Shown here: positions 17,972 to 44,219 of the stretch, piece after piece | How positions within the stretch are numbered: position 1 is the stretch's first letter | How the letters are laid out: every line of letters starts with the position of its first letter | Assembly (NCBI GenBank): GCA_964567575.1 | Contig: CAZMMZ010000001.1 | Span: 35,800 to 99,799, forward strand | Length of the DNA: 64,000 nucleotides | DNA from: Candidatus Undinarchaeota archaeon | GTDB lineage: Archaea; Undinarchaeota; Undinarchaeia; Undinarchaeales; UBA543 | Reading direction: 5' to 3' | Made by a program: the position numbers and the translations under genes | Notes under the pieces: generated by a model | Seen by the model: only the letters and a program-made list of their open reading frames with translations | What the model was told of the DNA's origin: nothing | Databases searched by the model: none

Positions 17972-18504
17972 AGAATTGTTTAATTTTTTGAAAATTTAAT
18001 AAAATGTTTATTTATTTTCCATATTGTAAATAAAAGATAAACACAGACTCCTTTGTTTCCTTTGGAAATATATATGTTGTTGTGGGTTTTATTTTTTTTT
18101 ATTATTATATTCTATATGGTTAATAAATATATATATAAGGGCTTTTTCACAACCAAGATTTCATGTGGAAATCACAAACAACCCCTTAATTTCGTGTGGA
18201 CGGCTCTTTGTTTCGAGTTTTTTGAAGTTTTTCACCTAATTTTTAACACCTACGTTGATGTTAATTTTTTTTGCACTGGAAAACATACTCACCTACACAT
18301 AAAAACTAACATAAAACCACAACCAAGAACCCCTTTATTTCCACTGAAACACATTTTACCCCCATTTCATCTGAAAACCTAAAAATAGTTCCATAAGAAA
18401 CAAAGGGGACACACCCTCACAACAAAGCTTATATACCTTAATTTCATATGCACATTGTAAGCAGGAAGTGGGGAATGGCACTTTAATGTTTACTAACTCT
18501 ATGG
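17972..18504. other. predicted chromosomal replication origin (oriC) with ORB-like repeats and a DUE
   Basis: 533-bp non-coding gap directly upstream of orc1/cdc6. ORB-like TTTC[CA]nnTGGAAA elements at 18056, 18159, 18190, 18269, 18338, 18365 and 18388. CACAACCAAGA repeated at 18148 and 18318. Confidence 0.6.
18087..18138. other. candidate duplex unwinding element (near-pure A/T tract)
   Basis: 52 nt with only 3 G/C (ttttattttttttt attattatat tctatatggt taataaatat atatataa), between ORB-like elements at 18056 and 18159. Confidence 0.5.
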
Positions 18505-18519
18505 GTGGGGTTTAGTTAC

Positions 18520-19713
18520 ATGGCACAACAAAATTTAAATGATCTTTTTGACGACTTCTTAAACAGAGCTCCGAATTTCACAAGAAAGGATGCGCTCCAA
18601 GACACATATACACCAAGTCAGGTTCCACACAGAACTGAACAAATTAACCAACTTGCATCAATTTTAGTGTCTGCTCTTCGTAATGAAAAACCAAGTAATG
18701 TTTTCATTTACGGAAAAACAGGCACAGGAAAAACACTTGTGTCTCGATATGTTGGCCAAGAACTAGAAAAAAAAGCCGCAACAACTAACACAGCACTCAA
18801 AACATGCTACATAAATTGTAAACTTGATAAAATCAACACAGCATACAGATTATTCGCGCGCTTCTTAGCAGAATTTGGTGAAGAAGTCCCACCAACCGGA
18901 TTACCAACCGATGAAGTTTATAGACATTTTCTTGATACAATGCACAAGAAAAAAGGAATATTCCTTTTAATTCTTGATGAAATTGATGCGCTCACAGACA
19001 CAGATCTTCTTTACAATTTATCTCGAATAAACACAGAATTAAAAGACAGTAGAGTTAGTTTAATCGGCATTTCAAATGATTTGTCTTTTACAAACAATCT
19101 TGACCCACGAATTAAGTCATCCTTATCTGAAGAAGAACTGGTTTTTCCACCATACAATGCAACACAAATTAAAGACATCTTATCTCAACGCGCAGAACTA
19201 GCACTTCAAAAAGACATACTTGAAGAAGATGTTATTCCAAAATGCGCAGCTCTCGCCGCACAAGAACACGGAGATGCCCGCAGGGCCCTTGATCTTCTTC
19301 GGGTTGCGTGCGAAATCGCAGAACGAACTGGCGACAAAAAAATCACAGTAATCCATGTTGACGATGCTCAGAAAAAACTTGATATTGATCGTGTTGTTGA
19401 AGTTGTTAAAACACAACCACGACAATCACAACTAGTTCTTTACAGCATTCTTTACTTAGCAGATCTAAATAAAGAAGACATTGGAACTGGGGATGTTTAT
19501 GATGTTTACCAAACTTTCTGTAAACAATCTAAATTAACTCCATTAACACAACGCCGCGTTTCTGATTTAATTTCAGAATTGGACATGCTTGGTCTTATTA
19601 CCTCTTCAGTTATTTCTATGGGACGATATGGACGAACTAGGAAAATAAAACTGGAGATGTCCGGCCGAGCTCTTGAAACCTCACGGGAGATTCTAAAAGG
19701 AGAATTGTTATGA
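18520..19713 (+). CDS. cdc6: Orc1/Cdc6 replication initiator
   Basis: AAA+ Walker A GKTGTGKT, Walker B LILDEID, and a C-terminal winged helix. ATG at 18520 is preferred over the GTG at 18505. Confidence 0.9.
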   Translation: MAQQNLNDLFDDFLNRAPNFTRKDALQDTYTPSQVPHRTEQINQLASILVSALRNEKPSNVFIYGKTGTGKTLVSRYVGQELEKKAATTNTALKTCYINCKLDKINTAYRLFARFLAEFGEEVPPTGLPTDEVYRHFLDTMHKKKGIFLLILDEIDALTDTDLLYNLSRINTELKDSRVSLIGISNDLSFTNNLDPRIKSSLSEEELVFPPYNATQIKDILSQRAELALQKDILEEDVIPKCAALAAQEHGDARRALDLLRVACEIAERTGDKKITVIHVDDAQKKLDIDRVVEVVKTQPRQSQLVLYSILYLADLNKEDIGTGDVYDVYQTFCKQSKLTPLTQRRVSDLISELDMLGLITSSVISMGRYGRTRKIKLEMSGRALETSREILKGELL

Positions 19714-33816: not shown

Positions 33817-34290
33817 ATGGGTATAAAGTCAATTTTCAAGAAAATAACTGGAGGGGTTAAAGAATCCATCACCGGTGAAGCTAGTTCTGAGGATGAATTT
33901 GGTTTGTCTGAATTTGAAGACACACCAACAGAAACTCCAACTGAAGAACCATCAGCTGATATGCCAGAATTAGCCCCTGAGCTTCGCGACGAAGAACCAG
34001 AAACTATTACAGCTGAGCCTGAGCCAGAACCTGAAGCAGAGCCACAACCAGAACCGGAATTACTTGAATCCGCACCACCAGATGATCAAAAAGTTCTTGA
34101 TGCAATTGATAATCTCAAACTCAAAATGGATGTTGTCACAGCCAAATTCGATTCTCTTGAAGCAAAGACCGCATATCAACGATCAGAAACAGAGCGGTAT
34201 ATGCAACAAATGAGTTATTTGAATGAGAAGCTTGATCACATTCAAGAAGAGCAAATGGAAATTGAACGTTTACTAAAATCAAAACAATGA
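33817..34290 (+). CDS. acidic low-complexity plus coiled-coil protein
   Basis: 157 aa with EPEPEPEAEPQPEPE tracts and a C-terminal coiled coil. Its stop overlaps the next start (ATGA). Confidence 0.5.
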   Translation: MGIKSIFKKITGGVKESITGEASSEDEFGLSEFEDTPTETPTEEPSADMPELAPELRDEEPETITAEPEPEPEAEPQPEPELLESAPPDDQKVLDAIDNLKLKMDVVTAKFDSLEAKTAYQRSETERYMQQMSYLNEKLDHIQEEQMEIERLLKSKQ

Positions 34291-40442: not shown

Positions 40443-40722
40443 ATTTTTTCGGTCTCATCTCTCACAAACGCGTATTTCACACACGAAATATGTATATATC
40501 TCTAGATCCTACTATATTCCTCTCACAAATGGCGCCGGTAGTTTAGCCTGGTATGACATGAGCTTCCCAAGCTTATAACCCGAGTTCGAATCTCGGCCGG
40601 CGCACCACTCCTTTCTCACAAACTACCCTATTTCTCACATAATAGGGACATTTGTCACTTATTTAACTCTCACAAACGAAGTTTTTAGTACATTTCTGGT
40701 GCGTCGCTTGCTATCGGTTTTG
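40443..40722. repeat. left arm of a long imperfect inverted repeat with an octamer array CTCACAAA
   Basis: CTCACAAA at 40461, 40522, 40615 and 40669; CTCACATA at 40634. 16-nt block TAACTCTCACAAACGA at 40664-40679. 19-nt block TCGCTTGCTATCGGTTTTG at 40704-40722. Confidence 0.8.
40532..40607 (+). tRNA. tRNA-Gly (anticodon CCC), CCA encoded
   Basis: Hand fold: acceptor GCGCCGG/CCGGCGC, anticodon stem TGAGC/GCTTA with loop TTCCCAA, T-arm CCGAG-TTCGAAT-CTCGG. Confidence 0.85.
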
Positions 40723-40824: not shown

Positions 40825-40848
40825 AAAAGGTGACGTTCGTCACCTTTT
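40825..40848. repeat. perfect 24-bp palindrome AAAAGGTGACGTTCGTCACCTTTT
   Basis: Read directly. Contains TGACG/CGTCA half-sites that recur downstream. Confidence 0.85.
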
Positions 40849-41150
40849 GTCTATATTCTCTGATTAAGGGGGATATTCGGTGCATTTCCTGATATTTGGC
40901 AGATCTTGTATATTCTCTTTATTTTCACACATTTCATACTGAAACAACTCTTTTAGTACAGATCTTATAGTGGATAACCCGTCATGCGACAGATGCGACG
41001 CATCTGACGTATTTTTAATGACATATGTCTTGCTTTTATTTTTTACACTACAACTTTTGTTCGTGAGCTAAAATTTCTCCAAAATCCGTCATACGACACG
41101 TCATTTCAAAAACAGAAAGGTATTTAAACCAGAAATCACCATCTATCACT

Positions 41151-41708
41151 ATGAGTTTGCTCTCAATTTTCAGACGAAAAGACAAGAAAGCGTCGCATGA
41201 CGCGTCATGCGACACGTCAACTAGCAAAGATGACACGTCAGATCCGTCATCTTACGCTTTTGATGTAACAAGGGAAGTTGAGCATACTCAGCCTAAGTTA
41301 GAGGACCCCTTGATATCGATTTCTCGACAACTTACACAGCTACAATTCCAGGTTGGTGAGTTAAAACCAAGCATAGAGTCTGGAGTTGAAAGCCTCCGTG
41401 AAGACCATTACCGTATTATTGAGGAGCAAGCCAACAGCGTGAAAGATTATAAAGAACATTTGTCCAATCGTTTGCAAAACCTGAAGCAAGCGACACATTC
41501 GGCAGAGGACGAAATTGAGAAACTAGAAATAGATCAGAAAATTGTTGAAGCCCTTGAGGGAGGGGAGAAGCGCGCTGTTGAACTTGCTAACCAACTTGAA
41601 GCAAGTCGACAATATGTGTCTGACAGATTGAAAGTTTTGCTTGAATTAAAGCAAGTTGAGAAAATTAAACGAAGTCGTAAAGTGTATTATACCTTGAAAT
41701 CTCATTAA
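41151..41708 (+). CDS. coiled-coil protein with a C-terminal winged-helix DNA-binding domain
   Basis: 185 aa. The C-terminus RAVELANQLEASRQYVSDRLKVLLELKQVEKIKRSRKVYYTL is ArsR/MarR-like. The 5' end is encoded by palindromic DNA, so the start is uncertain. Confidence 0.55.
   Translation: MSLLSIFRRKDKKASHDASCDTSTSKDDTSDPSSYAFDVTREVEHTQPKLEDPLISISRQLTQLQFQVGELKPSIESGVESLREDHYRIIEEQANSVKDYKEHLSNRLQNLKQATHSAEDEIEKLEIDQKIVEALEGGEKRAVELANQLEASRQYVSDRLKVLLELKQVEKIKRSRKVYYTLKSH
41192..41213. repeat. perfect 22-bp palindrome GTCGCATGACGCGTCATGCGAC
   Basis: Read directly. It explains why the ORFs on both strands encode SHDASCD. Confidence 0.9.
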
Positions 41709-41722
41709 AAATCGGGCGCAGC

Positions 41723-41830
41723 CTACTTCTTTTGTCGTGCTGCCTTTTTCTTACGAGTGCGGATTTTCTTCTTTGTAGTTCTCCATCTCTCGCGTCCTTT
41801 CTTCTTAAAATTGCGTGGTCTACGTTTCAT
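41723..41830 (-). CDS. 35-aa polybasic peptide, possibly ribosomal protein eL41-like
   Basis: MKRRPRNFKKKGRERWRTTKKKIRTRKKKAARQKK, with a TATA-like aaatataaagg about 30 nt upstream. The eL41 resemblance is from memory only. Confidence 0.4.
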   Translation of the reverse strand: MKRRPRNFKKKGRERWRTTKKKIRTRKKKAARQKK

Positions 41831-42217: not shown

Positions 42218-42236
42218 TCGCTTGCTATTGGTTTTG
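42218..42236. repeat. third (internal) copy of the 19-nt block, one mismatch
   Basis: TCGCTTGCTATTGGTTTTG versus TCGCTTGCTATCGGTTTTG at 40704 (+) and 43900-43918 (-). Confidence 0.8.
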
Positions 42237-42285
42237 CAGCATACAAAACTATAAAAACCCATAAAACTATTAGTGTTTGATTAAT

Positions 42286-42574: not shown

Positions 42575-43168
42575 TCAGTCGCTTCCTCTCGCTTTTGCAG
42601 TTTGAACTAATGAATCATATTCACTTGCAATATGCGTCCAGAATTTACTGAATTGTGTACTAGGTCTCACAATTTTCTTATAGAATTTCTGCTTTGAGTG
42701 TTCGTGATGGAATTCTTCACGCTCTAAACGCACCATTCCAACACGTCGCAAACGTGGCAGAACAACATTGTAAAACGTTGCTTTTGAGAAGTCTTTTTCA
42801 CGAATAAACGCTCCAATATCATCTCCACGCATCACATGATTCGCGAACAACTTATTCATGAATTCTATTGCGATCAAATGATATTTTCGCTGATATTTCG
42901 GTGGAAACACCAATTCAAGGATTTGATTGAGCTCCAGCCTAACGTTTTTGTGATATGCCCAATCTCCGCGCAATCTCTTAATATCATCGAGCCACATTGA
43001 CTCTTTGCTTGGAACACCCCGTGATGCAGGACCCCCGACTGAAATTGTTGGTTTTTTTCGCTGATCTGCTTCAACAACTTGCACAACTTCGGATGCGTAC
43101 TCTATATCATTATGGTGTTTTTTATCCATGGTTTGCGGTATGCTATCTTGGTATTTAAAACTTACCAT
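42575..43168 (-). CDS. hypothetical protein, possible C-terminal winged helix
   Basis: 197 aa. SKATFYNVVLPRLRRVGMVRLE is a wHTH-like segment. The ATG lies at the centre of palindrome TACCATAATGGTA (43163-43175). Confidence 0.5.
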   Translation of the reverse strand: MVSFKYQDSIPQTMDKKHHNDIEYASEVVQVVEADQRKKPTISVGGPASRGVPSKESMWLDDIKRLRGDWAYHKNVRLELNQILELVFPPKYQRKYHLIAIEFMNKLFANHVMRGDDIGAFIREKDFSKATFYNVVLPRLRRVGMVRLEREEFHHEHSKQKFYKKIVRPSTQFSKFWTHIASEYDSLVQTAKARGSD

Positions 43169-43401: not shown

Positions 43402-43746
43402 TTATCCGCCTTCGAAAGTTTCTTGTTCTTTGATCTGCAGTGTTAAACTCTTGAAAAGCAAATTTTCAAAATCTGAAGCAAGACTGTGTCCAGATTCTGT
43501 AAGTTTGATATATTTCACACGGCCGTCCTTGTTAAATTCAACAAGTCCATGTTCCTGCATCTTTTGAAGCAGTTTCACAGTGTGAGCATACGTGCAATCG
43601 ATCTTTTTTGCAAGATTTGACGCGTATGCATCTTTATCAGTACGTTTTATGTGTACAAGCAGCCTAGCTGGCTTTTTTCTTAAAAACATTTCTTCTAGTT
43701 CTGTATTAACATTCATTAGTAAACCCCTCAAATGTTCTAACTCCAC
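43402..43746 (-). CDS. winged-helix transcriptional regulator (MarR/ArsR/TrmB-like)
   Basis: 114 aa: YASNLAKKIDCTYAHTVKLLQKMQEHGLVEFNKDGRVKYIKLTESG. Confidence 0.65.
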   Translation of the reverse strand: MELEHLRGLLMNVNTELEEMFLRKKPARLLVHIKRTDKDAYASNLAKKIDCTYAHTVKLLQKMQEHGLVEFNKDGRVKYIKLTESGHSLASDFENLLFKSLTLQIKEQETFEGG

Positions 43747-43899: not shown

Positions 43900-44219
43900 C
43901 AAAACCGATAGCAAGCGAATCATCTGGGGTAATACTCAAATCCTCGTTTGTGAGAGTTACGGCTACTACTTAAACGCGAATAATTTGAGATCAGGGAAAA
44001 ATGTTAGAGAAAATGTAAAAATTAGTAATTTGTGAGACCGCAAAAATAGGTCTCACCCCAGATTTTTGTGAGGATGCAAAATGTGAGAAAACACCTCCTT
44101 GCTTGCGCATGGAGATGCGGTTTGTGAGGGTCCGATGGGGAATTTACTGGATTTGAATGACCCAAATTTACCCCCAAACTTGAAAATATTTTTGTGAGAG
44201 TTTCGAAACCGAAAAAATG
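43900..44219. repeat. right arm of the long imperfect inverted repeat with an octamer array TTTGTGAG
   Basis: TTTGTGAG at 43948, 44030, 44066, 44122 and 44192; AATGTGAG at 44081. Reverse complements of the 19-nt block at 43900-43918 and the 16-nt block at 43945-43960. Confidence 0.8.

Follow-up and report, generated by a model that had tools for sequence, protein, structure and literature searches.

Winged-helix repressors of the ArsR/SmtB family typically autoregulate via inverted repeats at their own promoters. Other regulators use several operators at once: the lac (O1/O2/O3) and gal (OE/OI) systems form loops with auxiliary operators located in coding DNA, and the archaeal regulator Ss-LrpB has three phased boxes at its own promoter. 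To our knowledge, nothing is known experimentally about gene regulation in the archaeal phylum Undinarchaeota. Here we describe a field of TGACG/CGTCA repeats in a 64,000-nucleotide stretch of an Undinarchaeota genome (the window, from whose first letter all positions are counted unless another contig is named). The field spans the promoter and 5′ coding region of a gene at 41151..41708 (+) encoding a 185-amino-acid (aa) winged helix-turn-helix (wHTH) protein, which we name CCwH. On balance, we favor the view that these repeats form a multi-operator autoregulatory array that would loop or wrap the promoter of CCwH itself. Two described segregation systems also invite comparison. AspA of the Sulfolobus plasmid pNOB8 (PDB 4rs8 and 5k1y) is a small, centromere-binding, ArsR-like wHTH dimer; it recognizes a palindrome located before its own gene, and its spreading starts at that site (PMC5120986). 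RocS of Streptococcus pneumoniae and the Par protein of pSK1 are single-protein segregation factors that combine a DNA-binding domain, a coiled coil, and an amphipathic helix (PMC11500499).

The CCwH family comprises 25 clustered proteins among ~5.8 billion searched, all on Undinarchaeota-like contigs, and the gene is single copy and conserved across the order Undinarchaeales. An AlphaFold2 model places a short peptide at residues 1-7, a disordered linker at residues 8-47 (predicted local distance difference test [pLDDT] <50), a single 84-residue helix at residues 53-136, and a winged helix at residues 137-182 (pLDDT >94). The best Foldseek matches of this model are CzrA, SmtB, and HlyU (probability 1.00), and a profile search of the PDB returned the ArsR protein 2oqg (E 3.5e-5). 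Matches to HTH_5/TrmB in Pfam and to ArsR/SdpR in NCBIfam are weak: HTH_5 scores 19.5 bits, under its gathering cutoff of 22, and NF033788 (HTH_metalloreg) scores 31.4, under its cutoff of 55. By its modeled fold the winged helix is of the ArsR type, with the curated family cutoffs not reached.

CCwH resembles the ArsR/SmtB autorepressors (SmtB, CzrA, HlyU, and BigR) in its winged-helix fold and in the inverted repeats with short spacers at its own promoter. Unlike them, it scores under the HTH_5 cutoff and lacks the alpha3/alpha5 sensor motif; in the wHTH of 26 aligned homologs, we found no conserved Cys or His of the kind that would mark a metal or redox sensing site (alpha3 CXC or an alpha5 His/Asp/Glu cluster), and the invariant residues are R153, Y155, R159, and L163. 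It also has an N-terminal peptide, a disordered linker, and an 84-residue helix N-terminal to the winged helix, through which it probably dimerizes. Moreover, the CCwH locus carries three phased groups of sites, some of them in the gene's own codons.

The repeat field at the CCwH promoter

We delimited four unstranded predicted operators, B1 to B4, named from sequence alone. The distal operator B1 consists of CGTCATGCGACA, GATGCGACGCATC, and TGACG (40980..41009, ~-171 to -142 from the ATG). The promoter-proximal operator B2 is the 17-mer CGTCATaCGACACGTCA (41087..41103, -64 to -48), which ends 10 nt before a transcription factor B recognition element (BRE). B3 lies within the gene (41190..41219, +40 to +69, codons 14-23) and combines the perfect 22-bp palindrome GTCGCATGACGCGTCATGCGAC (41192-41213) with a second 17-mer, CGTCATgCGACACGTCA (41203-41219), 116 bp from the CGTCATaCGACACGTCA copy. 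B4, TGACACGTCAgatcCGTCA, is also intragenic (41231..41249, +81 to +99, codons 27-33); additional ACGTCA and CCGTCA sites extend to 41249. The elements listed in the first-pass annotation of this DNA were all present where it had placed them, and the translations of both strands at the 22-bp palindrome do read SHDASCD, as it had remarked.

These sites are a singular feature of the genome. The interval 40831-41249 (420 bp) holds 11 copies of TGACG/CGTCA against 0.24 expected from the genome density of 0.56 per kb (Poisson probability ~1e-14 by our own arithmetic), even though the pentamer is under-represented in the window as a whole, with 42 copies against 62 expected, 11 of the 42 falling in the repeat field. 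No denser cluster occurs in the 745-kb genome, and the next densest, with 5 and 4 copies, are GAT-GAC-G runs of Asp codons within genes. The longer word CGTCATRCGAC (≤1 mismatch) has four matches in the window, all in the repeat field, against 0.39 expected; none of 100 shuffles reached four, and the rest of the 745-kb genome contains no further match.

The first-pass annotation had treated all palindromes here as one family, a grouping that our comparison divides in two. The perfect 24-bp palindrome AAAAGGTGACGttCGTCACCTTTT (40825..40848), with 11-nt arms that are 100% complementary around a 2-nt center, belongs by its sequence to a separate, genus-wide class of promoter palindromes (class A below), and it is the CGTCATRCGACA repeats that are specific to the CCwH locus. 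The core of the 24-bp palindrome, TGACG-tt-CGTCA (40831-40842), is the sole G/C-centered member of a TGACR-NN-YGTCA family represented nine times in the genome (2.3 expected); eight copies are intergenic, and most are located immediately before TATA-like boxes. Class A is enriched in three genomes of this genus (7, 7, and 10 copies), with 0-1 copies in genomes of other families; its sites are conserved at orthologous promoters in the congeners G001 and G002 and absent in the other Undinarchaeales families.

Between B2 and B3 lies the promoter. The BRE/TATA of CCwH (AGAAAG GTATTTAAA, 41114..41128, + strand) extends from -37 to -23, with the center of the TATA box ~26 nt before the ATG; this BRE/TATA, GAAAGGTATTTAAA, precedes the ATG by 30 nt, and G001 and G002 both retain GAAAGGTtTATAAA. 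Residues 1-13 of CCwH form a hydrophobic and polybasic peptide conserved across the 26 aligned homologs, in which the pattern M-x-L-L/F-S/D-I/F-F/L followed by Lys/Arg is kept, and the ORF has no in-frame ATG downstream of its annotated start. Because the peptide is conserved, the BRE/TATA before the ATG is itself conserved, and no later in-frame ATG exists, the annotated start is correct, and we abandon the earlier suggestion that the real start may lie downstream. The mRNA is probably leaderless, given the ~26-nt distance from the TATA center to the ATG. It had also been proposed to ask whether homologs keep the first ~35 codons; they keep the first ~13 residues, but not the ~35 residues that follow.

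The in-gene sites are confined to codons of the disordered linker, which is not conserved as protein, and the same words recur in non-coding DNA upstream of the TATA box. In codons 14-32, the codons that precede Ser codons are GCG, GCG, ACG, ACG, and CCG, a choice with P ~1.2e-6 under genome codon usage with the amino acids given. GAC is used four times in the repeat codons, in a genome where GAT accounts for 80% and GAC for 20% of Asp codons. Between relatives, the residue before Ser shifts non-conservatively from M/V to A/T/P, as the change from TGTCA to CGTCA demands. Codon choice and residue shifts alike indicate that the in-gene repeats are under selection at the nucleotide level. Since in-gene copies occur only in disordered-linker codons, the SHDASCD-type peptide would be a by-product of the DNA motif. 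The locus thus presents a clear case of candidate regulatory DNA in disordered-linker codons, with the motif shaping the protein sequence.

We compared this genome with the relatives G001, G002, P0014, P0020, P0022, P0024, and others. Each genus-level relative has a repeat version of its own, with one copy at ~-57 to -74 and another at +40 to +59, counted from the CCwH start. The two copies are spaced 116 bp apart in this genome and in P0014, 114 bp in G001, and 104 bp in P0020, and these spacings (104-116 bp) correspond to ~10-11 helical turns. In the same four genomes, a third copy lies 87-107 bp farther upstream, and relatives have their own version of the distal repeat, the counterpart of B1, at -151 to -164. 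Relatives of families f1 and f2 have either the repeat or an everted palindrome, YGTCA-NN-TGACR, at -57 to -63; the more distant families have this everted palindrome as their -57 site, e.g., TGTCAATTGACA. The repeat unit of this genome, CGTCA-tg-cGACA, fits the same class imperfectly. Across whole genomes of the order, YGTCA-NN-TGACR shows no enrichment (16 matches, versus 26 for a reversed control), and 9 of the 16 matches fall within ~170 bp of a CCwH start (6 genomes, 3 families). Homologs therefore do not preserve the N-terminal region as protein while losing the DNA repeats; the repeats recur at the same places in altered form.

The alterations are concerted. CCwH codons 14, 18, 22, and 29 carry CGTCA in this genome and P0024 and TGTCA in G001, G002, and P0014. 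Both palindromes are altered symmetrically, the upstream one from TGACAaaTGTCA to TGACGttCGTCA and the 22-bp one from GTCGCATGACA|TGTCATGCGAC in P0014 (center AT) to GTCGCATGACG|CGTCATGCGAC in this genome (center CG); the symmetric P0014 variant, GTCGCATGACA|TGTCATGCGAC, sits at the same codons as B3 does here. CCwH varies in parallel. Its recognition helix reads SRQY-V-S in the genomes richest in CG-type sites (CG-type to TA-type counts of 11:2 in this genome, 5:2 in P0022, and 4:4 in P0024) and SR(Q/G)Y-A in TA-type genomes (0:5, 1:10, 0:13, 1:7, 0:8, and 1:6). This pattern points to a regulator-operator pair with a predicted specificity switch, in which Val or Ala at helix position 5 would go with CG-type or TA-type sites.

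Candidate mechanism and rival explanations

These comparisons show that the sites exist, are unique in the genome, are selected at the nucleotide level, and keep their positions across relatives. From them we infer CCwH as the binder and autorepression as the outcome; CCwH is the most likely binder because its recognition helix varies with the sites and because of the habits of the ArsR family. As the predicted binding unit, the pentamer YGTCA/TGACR forms inverted pairs separated by 0 or 2 bp, represented in this genome by CGTCA-tg-cGACA and cGTCg-ca-TGACG. Three groups of such units, at ~-165, -57, and +45/+90 from the start codon (where transcription probably begins as well), lie 107 and 116 bp apart, or ~10 and 11 helical turns, so that the BRE/TATA is bracketed and not covered. 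CCwH dimers on the flanking sites would cooperate, looping or wrapping the promoter and thereby throttling their own transcription, and the upstream site may instead aid recruitment at low occupancy. The in-gene sites occupy the only coding part that tolerates them, the codons of the disordered linker. Sequence by itself thus yields a defined promoter with a probably leaderless transcript and a candidate operator grammar built on the YGTCA/TGACR pentamer.

Like lac, gal, and Ss-LrpB, the CCwH locus has helically phased sites that flank the promoter, with one group in coding DNA; cooperative looping or wrapping is here our inference. Unlike those systems, its intragenic sites lie in the regulator's own gene and only in linker codons, where they dictate the peptide, and both the organism and the protein family are uncharacterized. 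The array is most likely a known kind of circuit, an auto-operator, in an unusual layout that is partly written in the regulator's own linker codons. The first-pass annotation had offered an operator or iteron field, together with possible autoregulation through sites near the gene's own 5′ end. An operator field for a DNA-binding protein, located at the promoter and in the first part of the coding sequence, agrees with what we find, the iteron does not, and autoregulation appears to be the best reading of the site layout and the co-variation.

Several observations weigh against autoregulation by such an array. The link between recognition helix and motif comes from few lineages, and P0024 is the nearest relative of this genome and vice versa, which means that common descent could account for the link. 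When upstream repeats were matched to coding-sequence repeats within and between genomes, the matrix was weakly diagonal (12.2 versus 9.2 ± 2.3), which is not strong evidence because related genomes share the motif. The TATA box and transcription start site are not covered by any site, unlike the usual position of archaeal repressors, and the inverted repeats in the coding sequence would also fold as mRNA hairpins. Finally, it would be odd for a phylum-wide regulator to have strong sites only at its own gene, which hints at a further role or at weaker targets.

An unlikely but still credible alternative is that the field serves as the operator of another regulator that controls CCwH. CCwH is always linked to two more genes for small wHTH-like proteins of 197 aa (p197) and 114 aa (p114), so any of the three is locus-linked; the regulator could be either of these or the factor behind a genus-wide TGACA-NN-TGTCA regulon. 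The same pentamer occurs in class A palindromes at eight other promoters, and these palindromes stay TGACA-type in this genome while the sites at the CCwH locus are CG-type. The factor that acts on class A could be CCwH or another regulator. However, the recognition helices of p114 and p197 are invariant between genomes whose sites differ, the upstream regions of both genes contain no TGACG/CGTCA, and the everted arrangement is confined to the CCwH promoter.

Rather unlikely, in our assessment, is that CCwH acts mainly as a locus-specific chromosome organizer. By analogy with segregation proteins, it would nucleate at the site cluster, a centromere-like or tethering locus, and its N-terminal peptide would couple that locus to the membrane or to a partner in replication or division, with autoregulation as a side effect. 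Each genome does have a single strong site cluster, here 22 kb from the probable replication origin, and AspA is among the best PDB sequence matches of CCwH. CCwH and AspA are both small ArsR-like wHTH proteins, and AspA scores E ~1e-4 against the CCwH profile. Yet this similarity is no better than that of ordinary ArsR proteins, which score equally, so that the likeness is that of a generic wHTH, and only CCwH has the long helix and linker. Nor do parB and parA follow CCwH: in place of an AspA-ParB-ParA or SegAB cassette, the downstream genes are an eL41-like ORF, small ORFs, and two wHTH genes. The two MinD/ParA-like genes are off this contig, on contigs C4 and C2.

The modular design of CCwH, with a terminal peptide, floppy linker, coiled coil, and wHTH, mirrors that of RocS and Par (PMC11500499), and Par sites likewise adjoin their own gene. 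Compared with these bacterial proteins, the domain order of CCwH is reversed and its peptide is N-terminal and not measurably amphipathic, with a hydrophobic moment no higher than that of shuffled sequences. CCwH has no Pfam match and no detectable homology to DUF536, the module shared by RocS and pSK1 Par, and carries neither their DUF536 coiled coil nor their MinD-like C-terminal amphipathic helix. Nearness to the origin is explained by an order-wide synteny block (see below). If CCwH nevertheless were a chromosome organizer, it would be a reversed RocS/Par-like single-protein system in archaea.

We consider it quite unlikely that the in-gene palindromes are mRNA hairpins, ~40 nt into a leaderless message, that tune translation or stability, with the upstream copies unrelated or relics. 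Hairpins are predicted from near +40 in most homologs (z-scores -1.1 to -3.7). Against this, P0024 has direct repeats where this genome has inverted ones, the stems of G001 and P0022 differ, the same words lie upstream of the TATA box at conserved spacing, and the palindrome center, which would form the loop, still changes symmetrically. An Rfam search of 39.9-44.6 kb returned tRNA-Gly as its sole match. A sigma-70/terminator scan, irrelevant for an archaeon, only re-detected the palindromes as hairpins.

We give very little credence to the motif being a by-product of a selected (x-S-x-D)n peptide repeat in an acidic linker, or of replication slippage, with no function at the DNA level. The linker is indeed a loose x-S-x-D repeat within the genus. 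This account is contradicted by the codon test, with rare synonymous codons consistently chosen, by the motif-driven shift of the residue before Ser, and by the copies in non-coding DNA, and other families have lysine-rich linkers that still carry GTCA sites.

It is scarcely credible that the field represents iterons, an origin of replication, or the site where an element integrated next to tRNA-Gly is attached, for although a tRNA-Gly gene is adjacent and the flanks are rich in repeats and hold three small wHTH genes, integrase and Rep genes are absent, the trio and its flanking genes belong to the syntenic core, the composition is not atypical, and the canonical origin lies at 18.05-18.45 kb.

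Neighboring genes and genomic setting

The source genome is a metagenome-assembled genome of ~0.75 Mb (a 745-kb assembly) with 37% GC, 82% complete, assigned to Undinarchaeota (DPANN) and congeneric with "archaeon UBA543". The neighbors of the repeat field are housekeeping genes for an M18 aminopeptidase, seryl-tRNA synthetase (SerRS), topoisomerase I, and Hef, and tRNA-Gly(CCC) at 40532-40607 adjoins the field. An integrated mobile element or plasmid iterons would be expected to bring an integrase or Rep gene, an attachment (att) duplication of the tRNA end, and a patchy distribution among relatives. Domain searches of the genes around the field found no integrase or Rep gene, and the composition is not atypical. 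The gene trio of CCwH, p197, and p114 and its flanking genes are core, with synteny kept in all families of the order. This part of the chromosome is ordinary core and not a mobile island, and the earlier terms "iteron" and "island-encoded" can be set aside, the locus having no replication or integration gene and a trio that is core across the order. The paper describing Undinarchaeota does not mention the genes of the CCwH locus.

The ORB-like (origin recognition box) repeats, AT-rich element, and adjoining orc1/cdc6 gene that mark an archaeal origin are all found at ~18 kb instead of at the repeat field. Window positions 18050-18450, directly upstream of orc1/cdc6 (18505-19713), are probably the replication origin (oriC), with ORB-like TTTCCnnnGGAAAT repeats and an AT-rich stretch; both PolD subunit genes, small and then large, follow orc1/cdc6. 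The repeats include TTTCCTTTGGAAAT, ATTTCATGTGGAAAT, and the inverted TTCCATAAGAAAC, and a 109-aa ORF listed within this region (18053-18382) is probably spurious. We rejected the repeat field as a replication origin, since oriC lies beside orc1, 22 kb off. The region is thus neither mobile island nor origin, which removes a false lead. CCwH and orc1 are 12-22 kb apart in all eight assessable genomes, and the block of orc1, Hef, CCwH, and SerRS is kept across the order. Nearness to the origin was likewise rejected as evidence of a centromere, because Hef and SerRS share the block and ordinary synteny suffices.

Within the trio, p197 (42575-43168, - strand) has no match in Pfam or NCBIfam. Its conservation extends across the order, with 83-86% identity within the genus, and includes an invariant HTH-like segment, FSKATFYNV(I/V)LPRL(R/K)RVGM; the sequence suggests an uncharacterized conserved DNA-binding-like protein. 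The 114-aa wHTH protein p114 is encoded at 43402-43746. A 35-aa polybasic ORF, MKRRPRNFKKKGRERWRTTKKKIRTRKKKAARQKK (41723-41830, - strand), is kept beside CCwH in relatives and looks like ribosomal protein eL41.

The intervals 40459-40722, 42219-42237, and 43900-44200 contain arrays of CTCACAAA/TTTGTGAG and a two-block element. The latter, TAACTCTCACAAACGA-N24-TCGCTTGCTATCGGTTTTG, has only two copies in the genome, inverted and bracketing the three wHTH genes, and a third copy of the 19-mer lies at 42219. Every family of the order again has variants (CTCACAT; AAAATCGATATGC and AAACCGCTATGC) in the surroundings of the trio. These elements are probably bound by p114 or p197, the two invariant proteins. 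In L029 (G007), a 26-30-nt stretch of 5′ coding sequence (AAAACCGCTATGCAGCACTCTATTGT...) is found a second time before the promoter, with copies at -100 and +42 from the CCwH start; as a result of this duplication, the other motif class (AAACCGCTATGC) is embedded in the CCwH linker codons of that family.

At the position homologous to the 24-bp palindrome, relatives have TGACAaaTGTCA or TGACActTGTCA. The other class A sites of this genome (TGACA-NN-TGTCA, mostly TGACATATGTCA) are at C2:50558, C3:33105, C4:36287, C5:22179, C5:45490, C7:65269, C8:26009, and C15:9403, typically 5-15 nt upstream of a TATA box, and the genes downstream of them encode surface or membrane proteins, a PfkB kinase, and a small HTH protein.

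The N-terminal peptide of CCwH has lookalikes. It resembles MinE-type membrane peptides and archaeal boxes for binding of proliferating cell nuclear antigen (PIP boxes). A 157-aa protein (33817-34290, + strand) begins MGIKSIFKK, like CCwH; an acidic, disordered stretch rich in Glu, Pro, and Thr comes next, and a coiled coil forms the C-terminal part. The peptide common to both proteins may be a targeting or interaction motif. A search of the genome for PIP boxes found that PolB ends in QGKLSEYFG, which is canonical, and that the last residues of a PfkB-type sugar kinase, KKGTLLDFF, are PIP-like and similar to the CCwH peptide; these two genes with PIP-type ends are at C7:21017-21943 and C7:3426-5861. 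For the CCwH peptide, we take the PIP-box analogy as a lead only. Lastly, the Hef frame is uninterrupted in this genome and contains one or two in-frame stops (TAG/TAA) in three relatives (G002:C7:20948-23122, G007:C1:19277-21466, and G009:C38:23189-25351), which may be split genes, pseudogenes, or assembly errors.

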